This document shows positions 1-61,910 of a DNA stretch of 64,000 nucleotides, in pieces (position 1 is the first letter of the stretch; each line of letters begins with the position of its first letter). The position numbers and the translations under genes were made by a program. This stretch comes from Caloenas nicobarica (Eukaryota), in assembly GCF_036013445.1 (NCBI RefSeq), contig NC_088282.1, positions 133,631-197,630 of the forward strand, read 5' to 3'. The notes under the pieces are model-generated. The model was not told where the DNA came from, ran no database searches, and saw nothing but the letters and a program-made list of their open reading frames with translations.

Positions 1-192
1 CTGGGCATACTGGTGGTGATGGACACCATGTTGATACTGGGGAAACTGGAGATACTGGTGAGCCTGGAGTTGACGCTGGTGCTGAACGTCCTGATGTTAC
101 TGGGGATACTGGGGATACTGGGGGCGGTGGTGACCCCGATGACATCGCGATGACATCACGATGACGTCACCGCCCCGGCCCCTCCCCCGCAG

Positions 193-256
193 GCCCGACC
201 ACCTCAACAGCCACGTCCGGCAGGTCCATTCCACCGAGAGGCCCTTCAAGTGCGAG
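193..256 (+). CDS. MAZ: MAZ zinc-finger exon (window starts inside the gene). Encodes (R)PDHLNSHVRQVHSTERPFKCE.
   Basis: The translation matches human MAZ SRPDHLNSHVRQVHSTERPFKCEK. Acceptor cag at 190-192, donor GTAC at 257. Confidence 0.8.
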
Positions 257-1185
257 GTACCCACCGCCCCACAGATCTGCCCCATAGATCTGCCCCACGG
301 ATCCCGCCCCACGGGCCCCGCTCGCTGCGTCGCTTCGCGCCCCAAACCGACCCAATTCCGGCCCGTTTTCCCCCAAACCGAGTCCCTTCGCTCTTCCCAC
401 ACCCCATAACCCGCCCCACACGTCCCTGACCCACATATCCCAGCCCCATAGATCCCGACCCCCGTTCTGACCCATAGAACTGACCCAGGGATCCTGTTTG
501 CTGCGTCAACTTCCCACCCCAAATGGACCCAATTTTGACCCGTTTTCCCCCAAACCCGAGTCCCTTTTTGCTTCCTGCACCCCATAACCCGCCCCATAGA
601 TCCCGCCCCACAGCTCCTGTCCATAACGTCCAATTCCTGCCCATTTCCCACTGAAAATGGACCCAATTCTGCCCCATTTTCCCCCAAACCCGAGTCCCTT
701 TTCGCTTCCTGCACCCCATAACCCGCCCCATAGATCCCACCCCATAGATCCTGCCCCACATCAACATCTTTCACACCATTTCCTGCCCCAAACCGACCCA
801 ATTCTGACCCATATTCCCCCAAACCCGCGTCCCCTTTCCCTCCCCGCGCCCCATAACCCGCCCCATAGATCCCACCCCACAGCTCCTGTCCGTGTCGTCA
901 AATTCCCTCCCATTCCCCATTGAAAATGGACCCAAATCCGCTCCGTTTTCCCCCAAACCCGCATCCCCTTTCCCTCCCCACGCCCCCCCACATCCCGCCC
1001 CACACCCAGCCCCATAACCCCCCCGCCGCAACCCCGAAACGCGCCCGTTTCTCCCCAAACCGAGCCCGTTTCTCCCCGAAACGCGCCCGTTTCTCCCCAA
1101 ACCGAGCCCGTTCTCGCTCCCCGCCCCCCCCCCCCAGCGCCCAGCCCCATAACCCAGCCCCATAACCTGCCCCCCCCACCCCAGA
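255..1185. repeat. Tandem array of a C-rich unit of about 130 bp (about 6 copies) in a MAZ intron. Motif CCCCATAACCCGCCCCATAGATCCC.
   Basis: Direct repeats of gacccaattctgccccattttcccccaaacccgagtcc...ccccataacccgccccatagatccc can be seen. Confidence 0.8.
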
Positions 1186-1353
1186 CGTGCGAGGCCGCGT
1201 TCGCCACCAAGGACCGGCTGCGGGCGCACGCCGTGCGGCACGAGGAGAAGGTTCCGTGTCACGTCTGCGGGAAACTGCTCAGCGCCGCCTACATCGGGGA
1301 CCACATGAAGGTGCACGGGGCGCCCGGGCACAGCTGCGAGCTCTGCAGCAAAG
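1185..1353 (+). CDS. MAZ: MAZ C2H2 zinc-finger exon. Encodes TCEAAFATKDRLRAHAVRHEEKVPCHVCGKLLSAAYIGDHMKVHGAPGHSCELCSK.
   Basis: Near-identical to human MAZ KCEAAFATKDRLRAHTVRHEEKVPCHVCGKMLSSAYISDHMKVH. Acceptor ccccag at 1184, donor aaag|gtgtgg at 1354. Exon ends in phase 1. Confidence 0.85.
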
Positions 1354-2275
1354 GTGTGGGGCGGGGTGTGGGGCAGGATCTATGGGGCAGGGGGGCGGGC
1401 GGGGGGTGGGTGCAGGGAGGGAAAAGGGGACGCGGGTTTGGGGGAAAACGGGGCGGAATTGGGGCCGGTTTAGGTGGGAATGGGTGGGAATTTGACGACA
1501 CGGACAGGAGGTGTGGGGCGGGATCTATGGGGCGGGTTGTGGGGTGCGGGGAGGGAAAGGGGACGGGGGTTTGGGGGAAAATGGGGCGGAATTGGGTTGG
1601 ATTTGGGCAGGAAATGGTGTGAAAGAGGTTGATGTGGGGCGGGATCTATGGGGCGGGTTATGGGGTGCGGGGAGGGAAAGGGGACGCGGGTTTGGGGAAA
1701 ATGGGGCGGAATTGGGTCCATTTTAGGTGGGAATGGGTGGGAATTTGACGACACGGACAGGAGGTGTGGGGCGGGATCTATGGGCGGGTTGTGGGGTGCG
1801 GGGAGGGAAAGGGGACGGGGGTTTGGGGGAAAATGGGGCGGAATTGGGTTGGATTGGGGCAGGAAATGGTGTGAAAGAGGTTGATGTGGGGCGGGATCTA
1901 TGGGGCGGGTTATGGGGTGCGGGGAGGGAAAGGGGACGCGGGTTTGGGGGAGAAGGGGGCGGAATTGGGTCCGTTTTAGGTGGAAATGGGTGGGAATTTG
2001 ACGACACGGACAGGAGCTGTGGGGTGGGATGTGGGGCGGGATCTGTGGGGCGGGTTATGGGGTGCGGTTGGGGGGGGAAAAGGGGGCGCGAGTTTGGGGG
2101 AAACCGGGGCGGAATTGGGCCAATTTTCATCGGGAAAGGGGCAGCGATTTGACGTCACAGGCAGGATCCATGGGGCGGGATCTATGGGTTGGGATCTATG
2201 GGGCGGGTTGCGGGCGGGATCTGTGGGGCGCAGATCTATGGGGTGACCCCCCCCTCCCCCCATCCCATCCCACCT
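1354..2275. repeat. Tandem array of a G-rich unit of about 245 bp (about 3.5 copies). It is the reverse complement of the 255-1185 family.
   Basis: gggatctatggggcgggttatggggtgcggggagggaaaggggac... is the reverse complement of the C-rich motif in the preceding intron. Confidence 0.8.
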
Positions 2276-2291
2276 CCTCCCCTCCCCCCAG

Positions 2292-2392
2292 GCGGTTCGT
2301 GCCCCCTGGCGCCCCCCGGCGGCCCCTCCCCCGCGGTGCCCGCGCTGCCCCTGGAGGGGGCGCCGGCGCTCGGCCCCACCCAGCCCTGGTGA
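2292..2392 (+). CDS. MAZ: MAZ terminal coding exon. Encodes ...GGSCPLAPPGGPSPAVPALPLEGAPALGPTQPW and the stop codon.
   Basis: In frame with the previous exon and ends ...QPW-stop, as human MAZ ends SQPW. Acceptor ccccccag at 2291, TGA at 2390-2392. Confidence 0.7.
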
Positions 2393-2760
2393 AGGGGGCG
2401 GGGCCTTGGGGGGGGGTGGGTGGGCGGGGCTTGGAGGGGGCGGGGCCTCACTGGAGGCTCCACCCCCCCCCCCGGTGGGATGGGGGGAGGGGAGGGGGGG
2501 GGGGCGGGGCCTTTTGTACCAATGGGACGAGACGTGACAATAAAACCCGAGAGGCGCCGGCTGAGGCTCCGCCACCGGGGGGAGGGGCTTGGAGGGGGCG
2601 GGGCCTAAAGGGGGTGGGGTTTAAAGGGGCGGGGTCTGGAGGGGGCGGAGTCAAAATGGGGGGGTGGGGTCTAAAGGGGGCGGGGCCTCCAGGGGGCTCT
2701 AAAGGGGGTGGAGTTTAAAGGGGCGGGGCCTAAAGGGGGCGGGGCTTCCTCCAGGCCACG
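2393..2760. repeat. Array of Sp1-type GC-boxes (GGGGCGGGGC, about 12 copies) spanning the MAZ 3' UTR and downstream.
   Basis: Repeated ggggcggggcct / aaagggggtggggtttaaaggggcggggtctggagggggcgg. Confidence 0.7.
2539..2544 (+). terminator. MAZ: AATAAA polyadenylation signal for MAZ.
   Basis: aataaa sits 147 nt downstream of the MAZ stop codon. Confidence 0.5.
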
Positions 2761-3049
2761 CCCACAAGGGGTCGCCATTCCACCCCCCCCAATTCCATGG
2801 AGTTTGACCCCAAAATGTGGGGGGTTTTCCCCAAAATTGTGGGGATTTTGAGCCAAGTTATGGGGCTTTTTGCCCCCCAAATCCTGTTTGATTTTTCCCC
2901 AAATTCCATTGGAGTTTTCCCAAAATTCTCTTGTATTTTTTTTTCCCCATTTTTTCTCCCCAAATCCCCATTTTTTCCCCCCAAATCAGCCTCTCACCCC
3001 CCAAAACCTTCATTTCTATTTTTCTTTTTATTCCCTGGGGGGGGGGTCG

Positions 3050-4100
3050 CTCAGAGGTCAAAGGTCACTTGGGGTTGTCAATCGCCAGCTGGTTGCTCCC
3101 ACGTGGGGTCACGTGGGGTCACTTGAGGTGTCAATCACTGCTTGGAGGTCAAAGGTCACGCGGGGATGTCAATCACCAGCTCGTCGTCCCCATCCAGGGT
3201 CACGTGGGGTCACAGGGGTCACGTGGGGTCGCTCGGGTTGTCAATCAATGGCCGCTCCGGGGTCACGTGGGGTCACAGGGGTCATGTGGGGTCACAGGGG
3301 TCACTCAGCTTGTCAATCAATCATCGCTCCGGGGTCACATGAGGTCACAGGGATCACATGGGGTCACAAAGGTCATGTGGGGTCACTAGGTTGTCAATCA
3401 ATGGCTGCTCCGGGGTCACGTGGGGTCACTAGGTTGTCAATCAATGGCCGCTCCGGGGTCACGTAGGGTCACAGGGGTCATGTGGGGTCACAGGGGTCAC
3501 TTGGCTTGTCAATCAATCATCACTCCGGGGTCACGTGGGGTCACAGGGGTCACTCCGGTTGTCAATCAATGGCCGCTCCGGGGTCACGTGAGGTCACAGG
3601 GGTCAGTCAGGTTGTCAATCAATCATCACTCCGGGGTCACGTGGGGTCACAGGGGTCACTCCGGTTGTCAATCATCACTCCGGGGTCACGTGGGGTCACA
3701 GGAGTCACTCCGGTTGTCAATCAATGGCCGCTCCGGGGTCACGTGAGGTCACAGGGGTCAGTCAGGTTGTCAATCAATCATCACTCCGGGGTCACGTGGG
3801 GTCACAGGGGTCACTCAGGTTGTCAATCAATGGCGGCTCCGGGGTCACGTGGGGTCACAGGGCTCACTCCGGTTGTCAATCATCACTCCGGGGTCACGTG
3901 GGGTCACAGGGCTCACTCCGGTTGTCAATCATCACTCCGGGGTCACGTGGGGTCACAGGGGTCACTCAGGTTGTCAATCAATGGCGGCTCCGGGGTCACG
4001 TGGGGTCACAGGGCTCACTCCGGTTGTCAATCATCACTCCGGGGTCACGTGGGGTCACAGGGGTCACTCCGGTTGTCAATCAGCGGCCGCTCCGGGGTCA
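3050..4100. repeat. Tandem array of a unit of about 55-58 bp (about 18 copies). Each unit has a CACGTG E-box and three GGGTCA half-sites.
   Basis: Unit ggggtcacgtggggtcacaggggtcactccggttgtcaatcaatggccgctcc. It lies between the convergent MAZ and INO80E 3' ends. Confidence 0.85.
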
Positions 4101-4104
4101 GAGG

Positions 4105-4344
4105 TCACTCGGGGATGTCAATCACCAGCTCGTCGTCCCCGTCCAGGGCGTCGTCCCCGCTGCCCTCCCCCCCCTCCCCCTCCCCCTCCCCCCCCCCGTG
4201 GCTCAGGAGCCTCCGGGGGACGGTGCTGGGGACGGGGGGAGGGGCGGGGGGCGGGGCGGGGGGCGGGGCCAGCGCGGGGGGGGGGAGGGGCCCGGCCTGG
4301 CCACGCCCCGGGGGGGGGAAGGGAAACGGGGGGGTGGGGGGGAC
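4105..4344 (-). CDS. INO80E: INO80E terminal exon. Encodes [20 protein letters not shown]...[45 protein letters not shown] and the stop codon.
   Basis: The C-terminus matches human ...[33 protein letters not shown]-stop. Stop codon (reverse complement TGA) at 4105-4107. Acceptor cccccccccag at 4345-4346. Confidence 0.75.
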   Translation of the reverse strand, partial: [79 protein letters not shown]

Positions 4345-4379
4345 CTGGGGGGGGGGGGGAAATAGGGGGGTCGGGGGGG

Positions 4380-4700
4380 GTCACGTGATGCACTGGGACA
4401 CGGCCCCGCCCCCAGCCCCACAAGTGACCCCCCCACCTCCGGACCCACAAGTGACCCGAAGTGACCCCCAAGTGCCCCGTAACTGCCCCCCCAGCCCCAC
4501 AGATTAACACCCCCAGGCCCGCAAGTGCCCCATAAGTGACCCCATGACCCCCCAGCTGCCCCATAAGTGACCTCATGATCCCCCAGCTGCCCCATAAGTG
4601 ATTTCAGCCCCATATATTGACCCCCAAGTGCCCCATAACTGCCCCCGCAACCCCACAAATTAGCCCCCCCAGGCCCCCAGCTGCCCCATAAGTGCCCCCC
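4380..4700. repeat. CCCCATAAGTGACC-type short tandem repeats.
   Basis: ccccataagtgaccccatgaccccccagctgccccataagtga. The same motif family recurs at 5700-6170 and 19400-20300 (there as its reverse complement). Confidence 0.6.
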
Positions 4701-4729
4701 CCCCCCCCCCCCCAGCGCCCCCCACGGAC

Positions 4730-4849
4730 CTGGGGGCGTCGGCTGCTGCGGCTGCGCCGGGCGGGGCCGGGGCGGGGCCGGGGTGGGCGGGGCCCGTCGG
4801 GCGGGGCCAGAATCTCATTGGGGAACGGGCTGAACGGGGGCGTGGCCAC
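4730..4849 (-). CDS. INO80E: INO80E exon 6. Encodes VATPPFSPFPNEILAPPDGPRPPRPRPGPARRSRSSRRPQ.
   Basis: Matches human [34 protein letters not shown]. Acceptor ccccccccag, donor cag|gtccgt. Phase 0 in and out. Confidence 0.6.
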
Positions 4850-4889
4850 CTGGGGGGGGGGGGCGGGGTCAGCTGGGGACACGCCCCCC

Positions 4890-5210
4890 CCCCCCCCGCT
4901 GCGATTGGCTGGAGAGGGTGGGGGGAGCCCAGACCACGCCCCCTCGCTGGGATTGGCTGGAGAGGGTGGGGGAGCTGAGACCACACCCCCTCACTGGGAT
5001 TGGCTGGGGGAAGAGGGGGCGGAGCCGGGGGGGGGGGGGGAGACCACGCCCCCCTCGCTGCCATTGGTTGAGGGTGAAGGGGGTGGAGCCACGCGGGGGG
5101 GGGGCAGACCACGCCCCCTCACTGGGATTGGTTGGGGGTTGGAGGGGGCGGAGTCACAGGGGGACTGGGACACGCCCCCTCGCTGGGATTGGCTGCGGGT
5201 AAAGGGGGCG
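4890..5210. repeat. Tandem repeat of about 62 bp (about 5 copies). Each unit carries gggattggctgg, an inverted CCAAT box.
   Basis: ccacgccccctcgctgggattggctggagagggtgggggagc repeated inside an INO80E intron. Confidence 0.7.
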
Positions 5211-5227
5211 GGGCCGCGGTCACTCAC

Positions 5228-5279
5228 CATATATGGAGCGGGCGGGGCCGGGAAGGCGGGGGGGGAGGGGCTGCGCTTC
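5228..5279 (-). CDS. INO80E: INO80E exon 5. Encodes (R)KRSPSPPAFPAPPAPYM.
   Basis: Matches human KRKRSPPLGGAPSPSS. Acceptor cccccccag, donor atg|gtgagt. Phase 2 in, phase 0 out. Confidence 0.6.
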
Positions 5280-5299
5280 CTGGGGGGGGGAGGAGGCGG

Positions 5300-5600
5300 G
5301 GTCAGGGGGGCGGGGCCAAGGCGGCAGCCATCTTGGAGCCCCGCCCACCTCCCCGGCGGCCATCTTGGCTGCTGGCAGCGGCCATATTGAAGCCTGGCAG
5401 CCATATTGGAGCCCCGCCCACCTCCCTGGCAGCCATATTGGATGCTGGCGGCGGCCATCTTGAAGCCTGGCGGCCATCTTGGAAGCCTTCCCACGACCCT
5501 GGCGGCCATCTTAGAAGCTGGCGGCGGCCATATTGAAGCCTGGCGGCCATCTTGGAGCCCCGCCCACCACCCCGGCGGCCATCTTGGCCCCGCCCCCCAC
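5300..5600. repeat. Tandem array of about 13 consensus YY1 sites (GGCGGCCATCTTGG and GCCATATTGG variants), unit about 20-24 bp.
   Basis: gcggcagccatcttggagccccgcccacctccccggcggccatcttggctgctggcagcggccatattgaagcctggcagccatattggagcc... It lies in INO80E intron 4. Confidence 0.85.
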
Positions 5601-5667
5601 CTCTTGCCGCCGTCGCTGCCTTTGTTCCCGTCCCCGTCGCTGTCGGACGTCGCCGTCGCCTCCGAAT
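5601..5667 (-). CDS. INO80E: INO80E exon 4. Encodes DSEATATSDSDGDGNKGSDGGK(R).
   Basis: Matches human [21 protein letters not shown]. Acceptor ccccag, donor aagag|gtgggg. Phases agree. Confidence 0.65.
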
Positions 5668-5699
5668 CTGGGGCGGGGAGGAGCCGATGGGGACCCATA

Positions 5700-6170
5700 G
5701 CGACCCCCAAGTCCCCCCCCAGCCCCACAAGTGCCTGAAATTGACCCATAATTGCCCCATAACGACTCCCCGGTGCCCCCCAACTTCCCCATGTTGACCC
5801 CTAAGTGCCCCCAAATGACCCATAAATGCCCCAAAGTGACCCATAAATGCCCCACAGCGACCCCCAAGTTCGCCCGCGGCCCCATAACTACCCCACAATG
5901 TCACCCGGCTGCCCCATACTGATCCCTGAACGACCCATAAATGCCCCAAATTGACCTACACCTGCCCCACAGCGACCCCCAAGTTCCCCCCCGCCCCATA
6001 AGTGCCTGAAACTGACCCATAAGTGCCCCATAGAGAGTCCCCAGTGCCCCCCATTGACCGTCAGCCTCCCCACATTGACCCCCAAGTGCCCCCAAATTGA
6101 CCCATAAATGCCCCAAATTGACCCGTAACTGCCCCATAGCGACCCCCAAGTTCCCCCCCAGCCCCATAAG
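5700..6170. repeat. Short tandem repeats of the CCCATAAGTG / CCCATAAATGCCCCAAAGTGAC type.
   Basis: gacccataaatgccccaaagtgacccataaatgccccacagcgacccccaagtt repeated. Confidence 0.6.
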
Positions 6171-6186
6171 TGTCGCTCCCCATTAC

Positions 6187-6239
6187 CCGTCGTCTCCTCG
6201 TCCACGTTCTCATAGAGCAGCAGCCGGTCCAGCAAATAA
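6187..6239 (-). CDS. INO80E: INO80E exon 3. Encodes (S)YLLDRLLLYENVDEETT.
   Basis: Matches human SFLLDRLLQYENVDED. Acceptor ccccag, donor acgg|gtaatg. Confidence 0.75.
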
Positions 6240-7135
6240 CTGGGGGGAGGGGAGCGGCCGTGAGGGACCCAGGCATCCGGGAGGGACCCAGGCGTTCGGG
6301 GGGGACCCAGGCGTCTGGGAGGGACCCAGGAGTTCGGGGAGGGACCCAGGCGTCCGGGAGGGACCCAGGCATCCGGGAGGGACCCAGGCGTCCGGGGGGA
6401 CCCAGGAGTTCGGGAGGGACCCAGGCGTCCGGGAGGGACCCAGGAGTTCGGGGGGAGACCCAGAAGTCCGGGGGGACCCAGGAGTTCAGGAGGGGACCCA
6501 GGAGTTTGGGAGGGGACCCAGGCGTCCGGGAGGGACCCAGGCGTCCAGGGGGACCCAGGAGTTCGGGAGGGACCCAGGCGTCCGGGAGGGACCCAGGAGT
6601 TCGGGGGGAGACCCAGAAGTCCGGGGGGACCCAGGAGTTCAGGAGGGGACCCAGGAGTTTGGGAGGGGACCCAGGCGTCCGGGAGGGACCCAAGAGTTCG
6701 GGGAGGGACCCAGGCGTCCGGGACGGTCCCAGGCGTCCGGGGGGACCCAGGAGTTCGGGAGGGGACCCAGGAGTTCGGGGAGGGACCCAGGCGTCCGGGG
6801 GAGGGACCCAGGAGTGCGGGAGGGACCCAGGAGTGCGGGGAGGGACCCAGGCGTTCGGGGGAGGGACCCAGGAGTGTGGAGGAGGGACCCAGGCGTCCGG
6901 GACGGTCCCAGGCGTCTGGGAGGGGACCCAGGAGTTTGGGAGGGGACCCAAGAGTCCAGGGAGGGACCCAGGAGTGCGGGAGGGACCCAGGAGTGCGGGA
7001 GGGACCCAGGAGTTCGGGGAGGGACCCAGGAGTCCAGGAGGGGACCCAGGCATTCGGGAGGGACCCAGGAGTTCAGGGAGGGACCCAGGAGTCCGGGAGG
7101 GGACCCAGAGGATGGATTTTGGGGCCGTTTTGAGG
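6240..7135. repeat. 20-bp minisatellite GGGACCCAGGCGTCCGGGAG, about 45 copies.
   Basis: A direct tandem array. The same 20-mer family recurs elsewhere in the window in both orientations. Confidence 0.9.
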
Positions 7136-7146
7136 GATTTTGGGAC

Positions 7147-7217
7147 CTTTTGTCGCGCGAAACCTTCAGGAGTTTGCGCTGGGCCCGACGCAGCTCGTCC
7201 TGGAAACATTCCTGCTC
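7147..7217 (-). CDS. INO80E: INO80E exon 2. Encodes [23 protein letters not shown].
   Basis: Matches human [24 protein letters not shown]. Acceptor ttag and donor aaaag|gtccca on the minus strand. Phases agree with the flanking exons. Confidence 0.8.
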
Positions 7218-7299
7218 CTAATCGAGCAAAAACGGGGGATTTGGGGGAAAAACAGGGAAAAACGTAGCTAGAAATACACAGAGACACCCCCAGGAACCC

Positions 7300-9180
7300 C
7301 CAAACCACCAATTTCAGCCCCCAAAAGCCCAATTTTGGTCCAAAACCCCCTAAATTTAAGCCCCTAAAGCCCCAATTTTAGACCCAAAAAATCAATTTCA
7401 GCCCCCAAAACCCCAATTTTGGTCTCCAAAAAATCACAATTTTGGCCCCAAAAAATGCCAGTTTGACTCCCAAAAGACCCAATTTCACCCCCAAAAAGCC
7501 CAATTTCATCCCCCAAATGCCCCACTTACCCCAAATTCCTCCAGAACCCCCAAGTTCCCCCAAATTTACCCCAGAATCCCTCAAATTCACCCCAAATTTC
7601 CCCAAATTCCCCCAATTTACTCCAGAACTCCTAAAATTTACCCCAAATCCCTCCAAATTTACCCCGAATTCCCCCAAATTCTTCCAGAACCCCCCTAATT
7701 TACCCCAGAACCCCCCAAATTCCCCCAGAACCACCAAATTTACCCCAAATTCCCCCAAATTTACCTTAAATTCCCCCTAATTTTACCCCAGAACCCCCAA
7801 ATTCCTCCAGAACCCCCAAATTTACCCCAAATTCCCCCAAATTTACCCCAGAATCCCTCAAATTTACCCCAAATTCATCTCAAATTCCCCCTAATTTACC
7901 CCAGAACCCCCCAAATTCCCCCAGAACCACCAAATTTACCCCAAATTCCCCCAAATTTACCTTAAATTCCCCATAATTTTACCCCAGAACCCCCAAATTC
8001 CTCCAGAACCCCCAAATTTACCCCAAATTCCCCCAAATTTACCCCAGAATCCCTCAAATTTACCCCAAATTCATCTCAAATTCCACCTAATTTACCCCAG
8101 AACCCCCCAAATTCCCCCAGAACCACCAAATTTACCCCAAATTCCCCCAAATTTACCTTAAATTCCCCATAATTTTACCCCAGAACCCCCAAATTCCTCC
8201 AGAACCCCCAAATTTACCCCAAATTCCCCCAAATTTACCCCAGAATCCCTCAAATTTACCCCAAATTCATCTCAAATTCCACCTAATTTACCTCAAATTC
8301 CCCCTAATTTACCCCAGAACCCCGCAAATTCCCCCCAAATTCCCCCAAATTTACCCCAGAACTCCCCAATTTCCCCCCAAATTCTCCAAATTTTTCCCCA
8401 AATTCCTCCAGAACTCCCAAATTTCCCCCACAACCCCCAAATTTCCCCCAGAATCCCTGAAATTAACCCCAGATTTCCCCCAAATTCCCCCCGATTTACC
8501 CCAAATATATCTCAAATTCCCCCCAATTTACCCCAGAACCCCCCAAATTCCCTCGACTTCCTCCAGAACCCCTAAATTTACCCCCAAACCTCCAAATTTA
8601 CCTCAAATCCCCCCACGTTCACCTCAAATTCCCCCTAATTTACCCCAGAACCCCCCAAATTCCCCCCAAATTCCCCCAAATTTACCCCAGAACTCCCCAA
8701 ATTCCCCCCGAATTCTCCAAAATTTCCCCCGAATCCCCCCAATTTACCCCCAAGTCCCCCCAATTTACCCCAATTTCCCCCCAATCTACACCAAATCCCC
8801 CTAATTTAGCTCAAATCCCCCCAAATCTCCCCAATTTCCCCCCCAATTTCCCCCCAATCCCCCCAATTTCCCCCCAATCCCCCCAATCTACCCCAAATCC
8901 CCCCAATTTACCCCCAATTTCCCCCAAATTTCCCCCAAATCCCCCCAATTCACCCCCAATTTCCCCCCAATCTACCCCAAATCCCCCTAATTTACCCCCA
9001 AATCCCCCCAATTTCCCCCAAATCCCCCCAATTTCCCCCCAATTTGCCCCCAGTTTCCCCCAAACCCCCCCCAATCCCCCCAATTTCCCCTAATTTACCT
9101 CAAATCCCCCCAATTTCCCCCAAATTTACCTCAAATCCCCCCAATTTCCCCCAATTTCCCCCCATTCCCCCCCCCCCCCA
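7300..9180. repeat. C-rich short-unit satellite (CCCCAAATTTACCCCAGAA, units 10-20 bp) of about 1.9 kb.
   Basis: aatttaccccaaattcccccaaatttaccccagaa repeated. The bottom strand is G-rich. Confidence 0.85.
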
Positions 9181-9348: not shown

Positions 9349-9720
9349 GGCCGCCGCTTCCGCCTCCTTCCCGGAAGCGCGCACCGCCTCCCCCTCGCTT
9401 CCCATTGGCTGGGCGGCGCCGCTCGCCCCGCCCTCTCGCTCCTCATTGGTGCGCCGCGCTGTCTCTCTCCCTGCCCCGGGTTCGCCCCGCCCTCTCGCTC
9501 CCCATTGGCTGGGCGGCGCCGCTCACCCCGCCCTCTCGCTCCTCATTGGTGCGCCGCGCTGTCTCTCTCCCTGCCCCGGGTTCGCCCCGCCCCCTCGCTC
9601 CCCATTGGCTCGCCCGCCTCCTCACGCCCCATTGACCCCTTGGTTCGCCCCGCCCCCTCCCTTCCCATTGACACAAGCGGTTCGCCCCGCCCTCTCGCTC
9701 CCCATTGGCCGCGGCGGGGG
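9349..9720. promoter_or_regulatory. INO80E: INO80E promoter carrying a tandem array of NF-Y sites.
   Basis: Sits immediately upstream of the INO80E ATG on the minus strand. Units of about 60-120 bp each carry CCATTGGCT or TCATTGGTG (ATTGG is the reverse complement of CCAAT), at least six copies. Confidence 0.55.
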
Positions 9721-9779: not shown

Positions 9780-11700
9780 GGCTTTTCAAAGCAATTCTGG
9801 ACCATTTCAGTTGCTCTTTTGAGGCAAAACCCCCGATTTTTGGGTCATTTCGGGTGGTTTTTGGGCCATTTGAGGCGGTTTTGAGGCGTCCAGTGTTATT
9901 TGGGGGGGGATTCAAAGCGGTATTGGCATTTTTAGGGTTTATTTTTTGCATATTTGCGCCATTTTGGGGCCATTTCCCGTAAAATCTCGCAAAATGTCAC
10001 CAAAATCCCCCCAAAATTCCCCAAAACGCCACAAAATTTCCACGAGGTTTTAAAAAAGGCGCCCAAAATCCCGCAAAAATCTCCCGATTCCACAAAAATC
10101 CCACGAAAAAAGTCACAGAGCCCCAGGAAATTCCCCAGAATTCCCCCAAATCCCCCCAAATTTCGCCCAAATTTTAGAAAAATCTCACAAAAAATTCCCC
10201 AAAATCCGTTATTTTGGGGTTTGTCCGTCGGATCTTCAAATTTGCTCAAATTTCGCATCATTTCTCCCATTTTCTCCACACGTCGGGTCCATTTCTGAGG
10301 CGATTTTGGGTCGAAAACGCCGGTTTTTTGAGGCGAAAAAGACGTTTTTTGAGGCGAAAAAGCCAGTTTTGGGGTCATTTCAGCCGGTTTTGGGTCATTT
10401 TGGGTGGTTTTTGGGTTTGTCCATCACATCTTCATCAACATTTGCTGAATTTTTTGGTGCCAATCGCTCAAATCTTGGTTTTTTTGTCCCGTTTCTTTCC
10501 GCGCATTGGGCCCGTTCCTGAGGCGATTTTGGGTCGAAAACGCGGGTTTTGGGGTCGAAACCGCCGTTTTTTGAGGCGAAAAAGCCGGTTTTGGGGTCGT
10601 TTCAGCCGGTTTTGGGTCATTTTGGGTGGTTTTTGGGTTTGTCCATCACATCTTCATCAACATTTGCTGAATTTTTTGGTGCCAATCGCTCAAATTTTGT
10701 TCCACTTCTCCCGTTTCTTTCCGCGCGTCGGGCCCGTTCCTGAGGCGATTTTGGGTCGAAACGGCCGTTTTTTGAGGCAAAAAAGCCGGTTTTGGGGTCG
10801 TTTCAGCTGTTTTGGGTCATTTTGGGTGGTTTTCCTAAATTCTTCACGCCGATCTCTCGAATTTTGTTTCTTTTGTCCCGTTTCTTTCCGCGCGTCGGGC
10901 CCGTTCCTGAGGCGATTTTGGGTTGAAAACGCCGTTTTTTGAGGCGAAAAAGCCGGTTTTGGGGTCGTTTCAGCTGTTTTGGGTCATTTTGGGTGGTTTT
11001 CCTAAATTCTTCACGCCGATCTCGCAAATTTTGTTTCTTTTGTCCCGTCTCTTTCCGCGCGTCGGGCCCGTTCCTGAGGCGATTTTGGGTCGAAAACGCG
11101 GGTTTTGGGGTCGAAAACACCGTTTTTTGAGGTGAAAAAGCCGGTTTTGGGGTCGTTTCAGCTGTTTTGGGTCATTTTGGGTGGTTTTACTGAATTCTTC
11201 ACGCCGATCTCTCGAATTTTGTTTCTTTTGTCCCGTTTCTTTCCGCGCGTCGGGCCCGTTCCTGAGGCGATTTTAGGTCGAAAACGCGGGTTTTGGGGTC
11301 GAAACCGCCGGTTTTTGAGGCGAAAAAGCCGGTTTTGGGGTCGTTTCAGCTGTTTTGGGTTATTTTGGGTGTTTTTACTAAATTCGTCACGCCGATCTCT
11401 CGAATTTTGTTTCTTTTGTCCCGTTTCTTTCCGCGCGTCGGGCCCGTTCCTGAGGCGATTTTGGGTCGAAAACGCCATTTTTTGAGGCGAAAAAGCCGGT
11501 TTTGGGGTCGTTTCAGCTGTTTTGGGTCATTTTGGGTGGTTTTGCTAAATTCGTCACGCCGATCTCTCGAATTTTGTTTCTTTTGTCCCGTTTCTTTCCG
11601 CGCGTCGGGCCCGTTCCTGAGGCGATTTTGGGTCGAAACGGCCGTTTTTTTGAGGCGAAAAAGCCGTTTTCGGGGTGGGAAAAGCCGTTTTTCGAGGCGA
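9780..11700. repeat. Satellite with a unit of about 190 bp, about 10 copies, between the INO80E promoter and the PAGR1 3' end.
   Basis: Unit gaggcgaaaaagccggttttggggtcgtttcagctgttttgggtcattttgggtggtttt...ccgcgcgtcgggcccgttcctgaggcgattttgggtcgaaaacgcc repeated with minor variants. Confidence 0.9.
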
Positions 11701-11717
11701 AAACGGGGTTTTTCGGG

Positions 11718-11857
11718 TCAGAGCTTGCGCGGGCGCGGGCCGGGGGGGAAGAGGTCGCGGCCCGTGCGCAGGATCTGCTGCTCCAGCGCCTGGTGCCGCT
11801 TCATGTCCCAAAGCACCTTGTCCAGCGCCGCCCGGCGGAAAACGCGCCCGGAGGGGC
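11718..11857 (-). CDS. PAGR1: PAGR1 terminal exon. Encodes (G)[45 protein letters not shown] and the stop codon.
   Basis: Matches human [33 protein letters not shown]. Acceptor ttccag. Stop codon (reverse complement TGA) at 11718-11720. Confidence 0.8.
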
Positions 11858-12249
11858 CTGGAATCGCAAAAAACACACCTTTTCACCCAAAACCGCGGCG
11901 GCCCCCCGCGGGAAAAACGGGGGGGATTGTGGCGCCTTCTCGCCAAAAAAAAAAAAAAAGGCGAATCGGCGGAGGTTTTCTCGTCAGAGACCGTCGGGTT
12001 TTAGCGGTTTTTTGTGTCAGAAACGGGGAATTTGGAAAGTGAACCGAAAGTGGCGAATTTTTGCAGGCGGTTCACGGAAAACAGCGGGTTTTGAGGAGCG
12101 TCGCGCGCAAAACGTTGGGTTCTCGAAGGTGTTTTGCGCGCAGCAGTACGTCTTTAAGGGCTTATCGTCAAAATCGGGGAATTAAGAAGGATTTCGAACC
12201 AAGATAATGGCGCTTGGGAAGGTTTTAAATGAAAATTCGCTTTTGAAGT

Positions 12250-12580
12250 GTTTCCAGTGAAAACTATTTTTTAGAATAATTTATTTCATTTAGATTTTTA
12301 TGTTATTATTATTATATTATATTATATATATATAATAATATATATATAAAATATATTAAAATATATTAAATATATTAAATATATTAAATATATTAAATAT
12401 ATTAAAATATATTAAAATATTATATATATAACAATATATATATAAAATATTTATATTATATTATATTATTAGTATATATATTTTTATTATTGTATTTATA
12501 GTAGTAAAAATAAATTGAATACAATAACCATATCTATAATAAATACAGTAAAAATAACAAATCTAAAGAAAATACAATAT
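12250..12580. repeat. AT-only microsatellite block of (TA)n and (ATATTAAATAT)n.
   Basis: atattaaatatattaaatatattaaatatattaaa. This is a sharp AT island in a window that is otherwise about 65-70 percent GC. Confidence 0.9.
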
Positions 12581-12599
12581 AACATATATATAAAATATA

Positions 12600-13050
12600 C
12601 TGAAAAATTTCAGGTTTTAAAGCTTTTCAAGCAAAACTATTGAGTTTTTATTTAAAAACAGTTTCCTATAACCAAATCAACGTCTAAAAGTTCTTTATAA
12701 AAAAAAAAACAAACTATTTTTTTTTTTTTTTACCAAAAGCAACAAATTTTTTTAAGTTTCTTTGCGGGTAAAATCGAATTTTCAAACGATTTTTACCCAA
12801 AAAACCTGAATTTTTAAACGCTTCTTACTGAAAAAACTAAATTTTCAAAGCATTTTGCGCAAGGAACGGAACTTCCAATGATTTCCTACCGCAAATATTC
12901 AATTTCTAATGTTTCTTTACGAAAAACCCTAAAGTTTAAAGATTTTTACCGGAGAAATGGAAGTTTTGAAGATTTTTATCAAAAGCTCTGAAATTCTACA
13001 GGTGTTTTCGGCAAAAACGCTTCATTTTTTGTTAAGAAAAGCTGAATTTC
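12600..13050. repeat. AT-rich tandem repeat of about 48 bp, about 8 copies.
   Basis: Units of the form (tttt)acc..aaaacctgaatttttaaacgcttcttactgaaaaaactaaattttcaaag are repeated. Confidence 0.7.
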
Positions 13051-13067
13051 TAAAGGTTTGGACTCAC

Positions 13068-13150
13068 CGGGTGTTCGCCGTCGGTCGATGAGGGAACTTT
13101 TTGGGGTAACGGGCTCGTCGTCAAAATCAAATTCGGTCACAACGGGCGGC
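13068..13150 (-). CDS. PAGR1: PAGR1 exon 2. Encodes (K)[27 protein letters not shown](G).
   Basis: Matches human [29 protein letters not shown]. Acceptor ccgcag, donor cccg|gtgagt. Phases agree. Confidence 0.85.
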
Positions 13151-13179
13151 CTGCGGAAAATCACCAGAAATTCTCCTAA

Positions 13180-14570
13180 ATTTAAGGGTTTCCCCCCCAA
13201 AATCCCACAAACTCCCCCCCCCAAAATCCCCCAAACGCTACGAAATGCCCAAATTCTCGCAAAACGGCACCGAAATCCCACAGGAATTGAAGGAAAGTCC
13301 CCACAAAAACCTCCCCAAAATCCCGCGGAAATCTCGCCAAAATTGGCAAAAATCCCACGAAATCTGACGGAGTCCCACGAGAATTCCACCCGACTCCCAT
13401 AAAAATCCCCTCGAATCGCACCCAAATACCACAGATTTCACGAAAATCTCACAATATGCCATAAAAATGCCCCCGAAATTCTGCAAAATCCCACCGAATA
13501 TCCACAAAGTTCCCCCAAAATTGTACTAAATCTCAGAAAAATCCCCCAAAATCTCACAAAGCCTCGAAATCCCTCGAGATCCCCCAAATCTCAGAGAATT
13601 CCCCCAAATCTCACAATATCCAGAAAAATTACCACAAAAACCCCGCAACATCTCCACAAAATTTTGCCCAAATTTTACAAAACCTCACCAAAAAAAAAAA
13701 TCCTCCCCAAAATCTCAGAATCCCACAAAAATCTCCCCAAAATTCCACAAAACCCCACAAAGTCTCCACAAAATTTCCCAAGTTTTACAAAATCCCACAA
13801 ATTTCCCCCTCAATTTTACAAAACCTCCCCCAAATCTCACAAGATCTCCACAAAATTTCCCCCTAAATTTTACAAACCCCACACGTTTCCCCCTAAATTT
13901 CACAAAGTCTCCCCCAAATTTCACAAGATCGCCACAAAATTTCCCCCTAAATTTACAGAATCTCCACAAAACTTCACAAGACCTCCCCAAAATTTCCCCC
14001 AAACCCCACAAATTTCCCCCTAAATTTTACGAAATCTCCCCCAAATTTCAATCTCCCCAAAACTTCCCCAAAATTTCCCCCGAACTCCCCAAATTTCCCC
14101 CAACCCCCCCAAATTCCCCCCTAAACTTCACCAATTCCCTCCTCAATTTTACCAAACCCCCCAAAACTCCCCCCCCCAAATTTCACAAAACCTCCCCCAA
14201 ATTTCACAAGATCTCCACAAAATTTCCCCCTAAATTTTACAACCCCCCCCAAATTTCCCCCAAAATTTTACAAAATCTCCCCCAAATTTCAATCTCCCCA
14301 AAACTTCCCCAAAACTTCCCCAAGACCCCCCAAATTTCCCCTGAAACTTCACAAATTTCCCCCTCGATTTTACAAAACCCCCAAGTTTCCCCCGAAATTT
14401 CACACAATCTCCCAAATTTCCCCCGAAATTTCACACAATCTCCCAAATTTCCCCCGAAATTTCACAAAATCTCCCCCTCAATTTCACAAAATCTCCCCCA
14501 AATTCCACCACCCCTCCCCGAAATTTCCCCCAAACCCCCGCCGCCGCCCCCGAAATAAAAAACTTTTCCA
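13180..14570. repeat. C/A-rich short-unit satellite (CCCCAAATTTCACAAAATCTCC type) in the PAGR1 intron.
   Basis: Repeated caaaatctccccaaaattccacaaaaccccacaaagtctccacaaaatttccc. Confidence 0.8.
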
Positions 14571-20677: not shown

Positions 20678-20756
20678 GTAACGAGGCGGGGTGGGGGGCG
20701 GAGGGAGGACCCAGGCGTCCGGGCCCCACGGATCTGTGGGTCTCTGTGCCCCATAG

Positions 20757-21989: not shown

Positions 21990-23100
21990 GATCTGCCCCA
22001 TAGATCGGACCCATAGATCCGGCCCCGTAGATCGGGAGCCAGAGCGGGACCCACAGCCCCTGTTGTGCTGGTTTCTTTGGGTGTTTTCTTGCTTGTGCTG
22101 CTTGGGGTTGGTTGTTCTGCCCCATAGCGTGCCCCATAAGCTGCCCCATAACCTGCCCCATAGATCAGGACCCATAGATCCGGACCCAGAGCAGGACCCA
22201 CAGCCCCTGTTGTGCTGGTTTCTTTGGGTGTTTTCTTGCTTGTGCTGCTTGGGGTTGGTTGTTCTGCCCCATAAGCTGCCCCATAGCCTGCCCCATAGAT
22301 CAGGACCCATAGATCCGGACCCAGAGCGGGACCCACAGCCCCTGTTGTGCTGGTTTCTTTGGGTGTTTTCTTGCTTGTGCTGCTTGTGGTTGGTTGTTCT
22401 GCCCCATAACCTGCCCCATAGCCTGCCCCATAGGCTGCCCCATAACCTGCCCCATAGATCAGGACCCATAGATCCGGACCCAGAGCGGGACCCACAGCCC
22501 CTGTTGTGTTGGTTTCTTTGGGTGTTTTCTTGCTTGTGCTGCTTGTGGTTGGTTGTTCTGCCCCATAGCCTGCCCCATAGCCTGCCCCATAACCTGCCCC
22601 ATAGATCAGGACCCATAGGTCCGGACCCAGAGCGGGACCCACAGCCCCTGTTGTGCTGGTTTCTTTGGGTGTTTTCTTGCTTGTGCTGCTTGTGGTTGGT
22701 TGTTCTGCCCCATAGCCTGCCCCATAGCCTGCCCCATAGATCCAGACCCATAGGTCCGGACCCACAGCGGGACCCACAGCGTCCGTTCTGCTGGTTTCTC
22801 TGGTGCTTTTCTTGCTTGTGCTTGGCAGTCCCGCCCCATAACCTGCCCCACAGAGCCCACCCCATAGATCCTGCCCCATAGAGTCCACCCTATAGAGCTC
22901 AACGCATAGCGTCCACCCCATAGATCCCGCCCCATAGATCCCGCCCCATAGACCCTGACCCAGGGAGCACACCCCATAGATCCCACCCCACAGAGCCCAC
23001 GGCATAGAGCTGCCCCATAGATCCTGCCCCATAGATCCCGCCCCATAGCGCCCGCCCCATAGAGCCGTACCCCATGAGCCCCCCCACCCCCACTGATCTC
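21990..23100. repeat. Tandem repeat of about 120 bp (about 7 copies), followed by CCCCATAGATCC 18-bp repeats.
   Basis: cagagcgggacccacagcccctgttgtgctggtttctttgggtgttttcttgcttgtgctgcttg...ccccatagatcaggacccatagatccggaccc repeated. Confidence 0.85.
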
Positions 23101-24399: not shown

Positions 24400-25060
24400 C
24401 CCGGACGCCTGGGTCCCCCCCCGGACGCCTGGGTTCCTTCCTGAACACCTGGGTCCCCTCCCTGAACTCCTGGGTCCCTTATTTGGGTCCCCCCCCCGGA
24501 CGCCTGGGTCCCGTCCTGAACTCCTGGGTCCCTTTTTGGGTGTCCCCCGCCGGATGCCTGGGTCCCCCCCCGGACACCTGGGTCCGTCCTGAACTCCTGG
24601 GTCCCCTCCCGGATACCTGGGTCCCTTCCCAAATGCCTGGGTCTGCTCCCTGAACTCCTGGGTCCCTTTTTGGGTCTCCCCCCCGGATGCCTGGGTCCCC
24701 CCCCGGACGCCTGGGTCTCTCCCAAACTCCTGGGTCCTTTATTTCGGTTTCCCCCCGGATGCCTGGGTCCCCCCCCGGATGCCTGGGTCCCCCCCCGGAC
24801 ACCTGGGTCCCCTCCCTGAACTCCCGGGTCCCTTATTTCGGTCCCCTGCCCAGACGCCTGGGTCCCCCCCCTGCACTCCTGGGTCCCCCCCCTGCACTCC
24901 TGGGTCCCCCCCGGACGCCTGGGTCCCTCCCGGACGCCTCGGTCCCTCCCGAACTCCTGGGTTCCCTCCACATTCTTGGGTCTCCCCCCGGACGCCTGGG
25001 TCTCCCCGCACTCCTGGGTCCCCCCCGGACGCCTGGGTCCCTCCCTCACGGGGGGTCCCA
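24400..25060. repeat. 20-bp minisatellite CCGGACGCCTGGGTCCCCCC (about 30 copies). It is the reverse complement of the 6240-7135 family.
   Basis: ccggacgcctgggtcccccccggacgcctgggttccttcctgaacacctgggtcccc. Confidence 0.9.
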
Positions 25061-50399: not shown

Positions 50400-51060
50400 G
50401 GAAGGGGTTGGGGGGATCCCTCCCCGAACTCCTGGGTCCCTCCCCGAACTCCTGGGTCCCTCCTCGAACTCCTGGGTCCCACCCGGATGCCTGGGTCCCT
50501 CCTCGAACTCCTGGGTCCCTCCCCGAACGCCTGGGTCCCACCCGGATGCCTGGGTCCCTCCTCGAACTCCTGGGTCCCTCCCCGCACTCCTGGGTCCCTC
50601 CCGGATGCCTGGGTCCCCCCTAAAACTCCCGGATTCCCCCCTGAAATTAGTGGGTCTCCCAGGGAGACCAGGTCTATCCCGGACCCACCCGGGGCCACCA
50701 GGTCTACTCAGGATCCCCAGGGCCACCAGGTCTACCCTGCACTCAGCCCTCCTGGGTCCCTCCAGCACTCCTGTGTTCTTCCCCGCATTCCTGGGTCCCT
50801 CCGCCCTACTGGGTCCCTCCCGCACTCCTGGGTCCCCCCGCAAACTCCCGGGTCCCCCCTGAACGCTTAGATCCCACAGGGAGACCAGGTCTACCCAGGA
50901 CCCGCCCAGAGCCACTAGGTCTACCCAGGACCCTCCCAGAGCCACCAGGTCTACCCAGGATCCCCAGGGCCACCAGGTCTATCCCGCACTCTGGTCCCTC
51001 CCGCACTCCTGGGTCCCCCCGCACTCCTGGGTCCCCCCCCGCACTCCTGGGTCCCCGGTA
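50400..51060. repeat. 20-bp minisatellite of the CGAACTCCTGGGTCCCTCCC / GGACGCCTGGGTCCC family.
   Basis: The same family as 6240-7135 and 24400-25060. Confidence 0.85.
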
Positions 51061-61673: not shown

Positions 61674-61679
61674 GTAGGA

Positions 61680-61910
61680 TCTGTGGGGCACGATCTATGG
61701 GGCGGGATCTATGGGTCAGGATCCATAGGGCAGGTCTATAGGGTGGGATCTGTGGGTCAGGATCCATAGGGTGGGATCTACGGGGTGGGATCTACGGGTC
61801 AGATTTACAGGCGGGATCTATGGGGCGGGATCTATGGGGCAGGATCTATGGGGCAGGATCTATAGGGCAGATTTCTTAGTGGGATCTATGGGGCGGGATC
61901 TATGGGGCCG
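61680..61910. repeat. GGGATCTATGGGGCG 15-bp repeats.
   Basis: gatctgtggggcacgatctatggggcgggatctatgggtcaggatccatagggcag repeated. The motif is shared with the MAZ and TAOK2 intron arrays. Confidence 0.85.

Follow-up and report, generated by a model that had tools for sequence, protein, structure and literature searches.

The MAZ gene of the Nicobar pigeon, Caloenas nicobarica (Columbidae), contains near its 3′ end a short zinc-finger exon flanked by two introns that are filled with tandem repeats of one and the same family, running in opposite orientations on the two sides. The locus opens a 64,000-nucleotide (nt) stretch of contig NC_088282.1 (positions 133,631 to 197,630; assembly GCF_036013445.1), hereafter the window. 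The arrangement is best described as an imperfect palindrome in the DNA, with an exon at its center and arms built of the intronic minisatellite ("stuttering") arrays that typify avian dot-chromosome genes, and the account that we favor, at a probability of roughly 0.55, is that it originated by template switching, that its two arms have since exchanged sequence, and that part of the pre-mRNA folds so as to loop the exon out. The mirrored arrays in the DNA are described with high confidence, and the folding calculations render the loop-out geometry of the RNA physically plausible; that the arrays measurably change MAZ splicing is a prediction in which our confidence is moderate to low. Coordinates below are window positions on the plus strand, P0001 and similar labels are protein records, and L001 and similar labels are comparison loci.

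Inverted arrays on both sides of exon B

Within positions 1–3600, the MAZ coding sequence is confined to three short segments, here called exons A, B and C, and the two introns between them are almost wholly tandem repeats. When spliced, the three exons yield a 111-amino-acid (aa) peptide with zf-C2H2 Pfam matches and 100% identity to the NCBI entry "myc-associated zinc finger protein [Caloenas nicobarica]" (P0001), by which match the window carries the 3′ end of the Nicobar pigeon MAZ. Every splice junction of these exons conforms to GT/AG, and the sites bounding exon B are canonical (AG/ACGTGC at the acceptor, CAAAG/GTGTGG at the donor). A preliminary description of this DNA had placed a 169-nt zinc-finger exon of MAZ at 1185–1353, coordinates that proved exact by tblastn, splice sites and the P0001 match; it had also drawn two flanking introns with outer limits at 255 and 2275, and both introns exist, their true limits being 257–1184 and 1354–2291. 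The same A-B-C joining is found in the NCBI gene models of four birds, and annotated models include exon B.

A single repeat family, with units of 125/252 nt, fills both introns around exon B in opposite orientation, as had been proposed. Comparison of the upstream with the downstream intron by blastn returned 22 high-scoring segment pairs (HSPs), every one of them on the minus strand, the foremost covering 478 nt at 84% (E = 4e-129); the best ungapped arms span 196 nt at 90% (Table 1). Global alignment, which could have revealed the two arrays to be unrelated, instead matches 599 of the 684 columns that it aligns (88%), out of sequences of 928 and 890 nt. The complementarity of "roughly 900-nt" arrays that was initially envisaged thus holds for about 600 positions; the remainder does not align, and the last stretch of the downstream intron, 2244–2291, lies outside the arm altogether. 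The motifs first quoted from the arrays are likewise present in opposite orientations: the 25-mer GGGATCTATGGGGCGGGTTATGGGG has three perfect minus-strand copies upstream (580, 714 and 849), two perfect plus-strand copies downstream (1641 and 1893), and near-copies besides, amounting to 15 matches at ≤3 mismatches in the window versus none in 100 shuffles. Within the 64 kb, the full 252-nt unit is confined to these two introns, and only a short sub-motif of it occurs elsewhere. Among the inverted pairs of the window, that of MAZ scores highest, and no other has arms less than 17 kb apart. A check of mirror order by block permutation of the arms was uninformative, permuted blocks scoring similarly, as tandem arrays align in any register.

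Repeat periods of 14, 121–134 and 252 nt, as called by Tandem Repeats Finder (TRF), span both introns. The C-rich upstream arm (257–1184) holds nine acceptor-like CCCCAYAG motifs, and the G-rich downstream arm (1354–2243) holds 19 G-quadruplex (G4) motifs on the sense strand. The G-rich array begins at the exon B donor, its reverse complement occupying the preceding intron, and the donor 10-mer AGGTGTGGGG (at 1352) recurs exactly within the downstream array at 1509 and 1762. An Rfam scan of the whole window found no family at gathering score; therefore, no known structured RNA accounts for the arrays. Autoregulation by MAZ binding to its own GGGAGGG sites in the G-rich arm was considered and rejected, the five sites being not significantly more than the 2.7 ± 1.6 expected.

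Table 1. Exons, introns and repeat blocks of the MAZ 3′ region in the window
Feature	Position	Strand	Description
Exon A	191..256	+	66 nt, RPDHLNSHVRQVHSTERPFKCE; GT donor at 257; tblastn 100%, splice-site context, P0001 model
Intron A-B (C-rich arm)	257..1184	+	928 nt, 50% C, GC skew −0.46 to −0.70
13/14-mers CCCCAYAGATCY	266–312	+	Intron A-B
Units of ~134 nt	roughly 334–1012	+	Intron A-B; TRF
Best ungapped arm, upstream copy	722..917	+	196 nt, 90% complementary to 1476–1671
21/42-nt sub-repeat	1032–1112	+	Intron A-B
Polypyrimidine tract and AG acceptor	1132–1184	+	Intron A-B
Exon B	1185..1353	+	169 nt, phase 0 to phase 1; TCEAAFATKDRLRAH...CELCSK (TCEAAF...CELCSK), two C2H2 fingers; tblastn
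Intron B-C	1354..2291	+	938 nt, 51% G
G-rich arm	1354..2243	+	51% G, skew up to +0.75; within intron B-C
252-nt higher-order repeat	1408–2050	+	2.5 copies, 94%, TRF; G-rich arm
Best ungapped arm, downstream copy	1476..1671	+	Pairs with 722–917
Diverged unit	2050–2160	+	G-rich arm
14-mer GGCGGGATCTATGG, six copies	2160–2243	+	G-rich arm
Polypyrimidine tract (C-rich) and AG acceptor	2244..2291	+	Last 48 nt of last intron, outside the inverted arm
Exon C (last coding segment)	2292..2392	+	GGSCPLAPP...GPTQPW; stop TGA 2390–2392
Poly(A) signal AATAAA	2539–2544	+	Downstream of the MAZ stop

Several other repeats of the window are akin to these arrays or adjoin them. The short sub-motif that the MAZ arrays share with other arrays, CTATGGGGCAGGTTATGGGG, is found at 22144–22858 (minus strand), 50120 (plus) and 61676–61908 (plus), and the CTATGGGGC/CCCCATAG core, also frequent in crane introns, looks like a generic minisatellite building block. 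Another array family is inverted over longer distances, 6262–7108 matching 24400–25045 and 50413–50866 (17 kb and 43 kb apart) over up to 675 nt at 79% and 236 nt at 87%. Directly downstream of MAZ, positions 3050–4100 hold a 53/102/208-nt higher-order array (GGGGTCACGTGGGGTCACAGGGGTCAC...GTCAATCAATGG), whose GGGGTCAC core is similar to GTGACCCC, the motif filling the upstream intron in songbirds. The short 3′ untranslated region and the sequence past the poly(A) signal (2395–2760) carry GGGGCGGGGCC-type 16-mer repeats (TRF 2578–2745, 10.7 copies), which resemble arrays of GC boxes or G-rich pause elements. As for annotation, the public bird MAZ models (P0001, P0002, P0003, P0008 and P0013) are truncated, with lengths of 121–147 aa and a start that falls within the intron preceding exon A, and the Columba guinea model P0013 is a chimera with exon B fused to a kinase-like exon over a gene range of ~51 kb. 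Array-filled introns evidently break automatic annotation of bird MAZ.

Arm similarity within and between birds

The MAZ 3′ region was obtained from six further assemblies, fetched via their annotated proteins, and its exons were placed by tblastn. In a second pigeon genus, represented by C. guinea, the mirror is larger: introns A-B and B-C measure 2.5 kb (2522 nt) and 3.3 kb (3325 nt), compared to 928 and 938 nt in Caloenas, and the arms match over 1152 nt at 86% and 1890 nt at 79%, with 1468 HSPs on the minus strand and none on the plus strand. Blackbird (two copies of the region) and canary have C-rich upstream introns of 1.2–2.4 kb and cross-exon inverted homology of 100–200 nt at 75–84%. 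The songbird mirror is built from a 13-mer, CCACGCCCACTGA upstream and TCAGTGGGTGTGG downstream, and a search for homology between the pigeon and songbird arrays gave no match at E ≤ 1e-5. Crane (upstream intron 84 nt, without an array), scimitarbill (488 nt, C-rich) and the bird at L007 (at least 930 nt, C-rich) have no cross-exon inverted homology; compositional polarity is present in all three and sequence-specific complementarity is absent. In every bird with an expanded intron A-B, scimitarbill and L007 included, GC skew turns from negative to positive exactly at exon B. The crane carries TGGGGC G-rich arrays downstream only, and in its upstream intron of 84 nt, the C content already stands at 65%. 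The intron that precedes exon A stays G-rich all the way to the acceptor. In the blackbird locus L003, the exon A–intron–exon B segment occurs twice in tandem (3205–5627 and 10064–12710, ~6.9 kb apart), downstream of a single upstream zinc-finger exon (872–1084); use of both copies would shift the frame (235 nt), so that the duplication is either a real intragenic one with one copy skipped or an assembly problem.

The recurrence of the mirror bears on the reality of the Nicobar pigeon assembly. A fold-back or chimeric read could conceivably have created a false inverted duplication, and dot-chromosome minisatellites are hard to sequence and assemble; such an artefact is nonetheless exceedingly improbable, for a palindrome made by artefact would have near-perfect arms and these are just 84–88% identical, they enclose a functional exon whose splice sites are intact, and the arrangement is repeated in independent assemblies of the other pigeon genus and of two songbirds.

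With all arrays brought to one orientation before scoring, the two arms of a pigeon resemble each other far more than either resembles its positional counterpart in the other genus. Upstream versus downstream scores 446 bits in Caloenas and 1131 bits in C. guinea; between the two species, the upstream arms score 121 bits and the downstream arms 82 bits. Unit alignment reveals species-diagnostic segments common to both arms (for example, GCCGATCGGGGSAGAAACGGCCGAGATTTGGGGCATTTT in C. guinea versus GGGACGCGGGTTTGGGGGAAAATGGGGCGGAATTGGG in Caloenas), alternative sub-unit types of the higher-order repeat are found in both arms, and of 29 complex units compared with everything beyond their own array, 26 were closest to a unit from the opposite arm of the same species. 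Repeat units group by species rather than by position and the arms therefore evolve in concert, so that the pigeon sequences point to concerted evolution or repeated re-copying between the arms. Songbirds exhibit the opposite pattern: the upstream arrays of blackbird and canary align with each other over 1.0–1.26 kb at ~75%, while upstream–downstream similarity is weak. By the same comparison, no homogenization between arms is under way in songbirds.

A scan for close inverted arrays (≥100 nt, E ≤ 1e-10, gap ≤5 kb) covered 223 kb in eight sequences, the loci all having been chosen around exon B. It yielded pairs around MAZ exon B in four species and one other site, in C. guinea L001, where 2978–6353 and 6486–8902 form arms of ~2.4 kb at 74%. 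At the center of this second palindrome (~6385), there is no exon but a bare junction, GGGACAGACACAGTGTCCCC, at which a G-rich minisatellite of the GGGGACACTGG type passes directly into its own reverse complement. An exon-free palindrome implies that array inversion is a DNA-level process that needs no exon; judging from this example, a mirror arrangement can arise and persist without a role in splicing. Template switching during replication, with later exchange between arms, would be the simplest way to explain such inversion. Across C. guinea MAZ (L001 1–26000), GC skew alternates in multi-kilobase blocks, one of which (10000–14500) reaches +0.9. Three of the four skew flips in this gene fall on MAZ exons (a zinc-finger exon at 9447–9656, exon A at 18159 and exon B at 20747).

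Predicted folding of the pre-mRNA

Folding of 257–2291 gave a minimum free energy (MFE) of −1451 kcal/mol, in a structure with 632 upstream–downstream pairs, compared to 37 and 76 pairs within the individual introns, and with exon B in the loop. The core, 770–1769, folds at −663.5 kcal/mol versus −484.5 ± 9.6 (z = −18.7). The preliminary description had supposed that the arrays are complementary in the pre-mRNA and could leave the zinc-finger exon looped out, and proposed predicting the duplex between them; the fold, weighed against its controls, supports this in silico. Each array is so strand-biased that its own intron offers almost no pairing partner. In the controls, reversing the downstream arm left −995 kcal/mol and 532 cross pairs, and mononucleotide shuffles gave −925 to −944 kcal/mol with about 540 cross pairs, while the direct orientation collapsed to −367 kcal/mol and 5 cross pairs. 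Since the composition controls still cross-pair, cross-pairing is driven by composition alone, and the contribution of true homology comes to about −460 to −520 kcal/mol; in these calculations, about two thirds of the predicted stem energy is attributable to the C-rich versus G-rich composition alone. The difference between the native MFE and the downstream-reversed control was also computed for the other birds, and amounts to −870 kcal/mol in C. guinea, −336 in blackbird, −243 in canary, −53 in L007, −37 in crane and −32 in scimitarbill.

The weight of composition in these numbers raises a different account, in which pairing had no part in setting the polarity, which goes back instead to selection for strand composition or to whatever sequence locally seeded the arrays, and no loop-out stem forms in vivo. 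Stuttering would then have amplified the C-rich sequence before the acceptor and the G-rich sequence after the donor (G-run splicing enhancers), the arrays would strengthen exon definition, and proteins together with G-quadruplexes would hold the RNA strands apart. We regard this as possible though rather unlikely. It accommodates the skew flip at exon B in scimitarbill and L007, neither of which has sequence-specific complementarity, as well as the C-rich short intron of the crane, the three of four C. guinea flips that fall on MAZ exons, and the −930 to −995 of −1451 kcal/mol obtained from composition alone; the 19 G4 motifs, the nine acceptor-like motifs and the donor copies inside the array also fit, as does the local origin reported for stuttering arrays (Hron et al., 2026; PMC12954441). 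What it fails to explain is the presence in both introns of complex 125–250-nt units that are reverse complements at 84–90%, and the co-evolution of the arms in two pigeon genera. Moreover, the G-rich intron before exon A indicates that "C-rich upstream of exons" is no rule here.

Were the predicted stem to form, exon B is the element whose splicing it would affect. Flanking complementary geometry is established in general as promoting back-splicing (PMC8516420; PMC12218527), and the reverse-complementary stretches described above (478 nt at 84%, 196 nt at 90%) exceed the 30–40-nt minimum for back-splicing loci. The length of exon B is not divisible by three; an mRNA that skips it is predicted to be read out of frame from there on, as an Arg/Pro/Gly tail of 81 aa that stops at TGA 2535–2537, and the product would be without the last two MAZ fingers. 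Because that stop falls in the last exon, nonsense-mediated decay of the skipped mRNA is not expected. MAZ is a dosage-sensitive transcription and insulator factor, and for this reason the predicted RNA effects, loss of the last two fingers or diversion of exon B into a circle, could matter. Protein matches from Logan and ENA were considered as transcript evidence and rejected, as they are unspliced read-through open reading frames on genomic DNA.

A further account is that complementarity has been kept by selection, as an RNA device that tunes MAZ output by looping out exon B. The device would deliver a circular RNA or a frameshifted protein without the last two fingers, would have evolved convergently in pigeons and songbirds, and possibly arose after loss of another exon. 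An alternative zinc-finger exon (FTTAAYLRVHAVKDHG...), which we take to be the mammalian MAZ isoform-2 exon, follows exon B and precedes the last exon in crane, scimitarbill and L007 (L002 12656–12865; L004 13302–13463; L007 1999–2172), and is undetectable even at E ≤ 10 in the Nicobar pigeon (1354–2291), C. guinea, blackbird and canary. The four species without a detectable isoform-2 exon are exactly the four with cross-exon complementary arrays, which speaks for such a device, as do the recurrence of complementarity at exon B in two pigeons and two songbirds from unrelated repeat families and the location there of all but one of the close inverted array pairs in the 223-kb scan. Transition mismatches in the sense RNA are skewed toward G·U over A·C in Caloenas (25 vs. 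8, p = 0.005) and in blackbird copy 1 (9 vs. 1); these counts are non-independent, coming from tandem copies, and are confounded by transcription-linked mutation bias, and the largest sample, C. guinea, has no wobble excess (62 vs. 52, p = 0.40). In songbirds, the arms are decaying (75–84% over 100–200 nt) while arrays at the same position align over ~1 kb, which argues against purifying selection on pairing. An exon-free palindrome exists nearby in C. guinea, and since all sampled loci were picked around exon B, the background rate of such pairs is poorly constrained. On this balance, selective maintenance of the complementarity is improbable. In its strongest form, the idea treats co-evolving minisatellite palindromes centred on an exon as an RNA-level switch under selection, which perhaps took over a regulatory function from the lost isoform-2 exon. 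This form we consider very doubtful; if true, stuttering arrays would supply splicing-regulatory structure to genomes that have few transposons.

Proposed origin and relation to known systems

In the account that we favor, the palindrome came about at the DNA level and its RNA consequences are by-products. The family would have arisen in the downstream intron, the G-rich array being the original and the upstream C-rich array its inverted copy. The direction is suggested by the donor 10-mer copies at 1509 and 1762, which mark an array grown from the splice-site region, by the crane, in which G-rich arrays occur downstream only, and by the G-rich intron before exon A. It is also suggested by G-rich coding-strand introns being the norm on songbird dot chromosomes (bioRxiv 10.1101/2025.10.17.683159); for stuttering arrays in avian dot-chromosome introns, local origin and growth from the splice-site region have been described (Hron et al., 2026; PMC12954441). 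Inverted copying probably took place when replication switched templates between the C-rich and G-rich flanks, over the short exon, and the arms would later have been homogenized by mutual exchange, through gene conversion or repeated switching, with the essential exon B acting as the palindrome spacer. After transcription, the arrays would be each other's sole good partners, and part of the pre-mRNA would fold into a long, imperfect stem. By juxtaposing the splice sites of exon B, this stem could, as a side effect, divert some transcripts into a 169-nt circular RNA and/or into a frameshifted mRNA that lacks the exon, inclusion of exon B by canonical splicing presumably staying the main outcome.

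Several observations weigh against this account. Arm identity of 84–88% is low for classical gene conversion, and collinearity of the arms is ambiguous, so that independent inverted duplications in each pigeon lineage are inseparable from continuing conversion. The 19 G4 motifs of the G-rich arm would compete with the duplex, and G-rich and C-rich RNA is normally protein-bound; G4 motifs and such RNA-binding proteins may block the stem in vivo. Lastly, the same polarity is achieved in songbirds by an unrelated repeat, a hint that more than accident favors the arrangement at exon B.

In primates, inverted Alu pairs in flanking introns drive exon circularization, and long inverted repeats surround mouse Sry. 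The MAZ locus shares with these systems reverse complements in both introns around a canonically spliced exon, with cross-intron pairing predicted to win. It differs in that its elements are local minisatellite arrays, not dispersed transposons, which fill nearly whole introns and whose arms co-evolve; moreover, the exon is short (169 nt) and back-splicing is predicted here from sequence alone. In a literature search that was not exhaustive, human circMAZ was mentioned once, without exon detail, and the word "minisatellite" was absent from the circular RNA papers found.

Large sex-chromosome palindromes undergo gene conversion between arms of tens to hundreds of kilobases and over 99% identity. 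MAZ-type palindromes resemble them in having inverted arms, a unique spacer and arm similarity that is greater within than between species. Their arms, however, are only 1–2.5 kb long, consist of tandem arrays without genes and, at 84–88%, fall short of the >99% identity of that class, and their spacer is a coding exon. Lin and colleagues reportedly described, in 2016, complementary (GT)n/(AC)n repeats that lie at opposite ends of teleost introns and form a bridge between the splice sites. There, too, simple repeats of opposite strand composition give long-range pre-mRNA pairing near splice sites, and the second C. guinea palindrome, G-rich then C-rich and ending at the zinc-finger exon at 9447, shares the teleost-like G-then-C order. 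The teleost pairing, however, lies within one intron and aids its removal, whereas the MAZ partners sit in two introns and would enclose an exon.

The stuttering introns of birds are also close relatives. The MAZ locus matches them in being a GC-rich gene with introns of imperfect tandem repeats whose units run from tens to hundreds of bases, in the copies of splice-site and exon-edge sequence within an array, and in the large length differences between related birds (0.9 vs. 2.5 kb). Stuttering repeat blocks were described as isolated within individual introns, and inverted copies are unmentioned (Hron et al., 2026; PMC12954441); the MAZ family, in contrast, spans two adjacent introns and is mirrored across the exon, departing from confinement to a single intron. 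The window is GC-rich and repeat-dense, consistent with a dot-chromosome location. The crane MAZ neighbors INO80E, eIF3C and PAXIP1_C, presumably genes of human 16p11.2, are consistent with the same location. A search, again not exhaustive, of the literature on avian dot-chromosome repeats found no description of inverted arrays across an exon. Both components of the MAZ feature, inverted repeats placed around an exon and the stuttering of avian introns, are known, and the feature is not a new kind of system.

What the locus adds is that stuttering arrays can extend beyond one intron, that their inversion occurs both around an exon and in the absence of one, and that the inverted copies co-evolve. 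Bird genomes are poor in transposons, the usual source of the inverted repeats behind exon circularization in mammals. If dot-chromosome minisatellites can flip across an exon and stay complementary, they would provide an alternative, fast-evolving source of long-range pre-mRNA structure.

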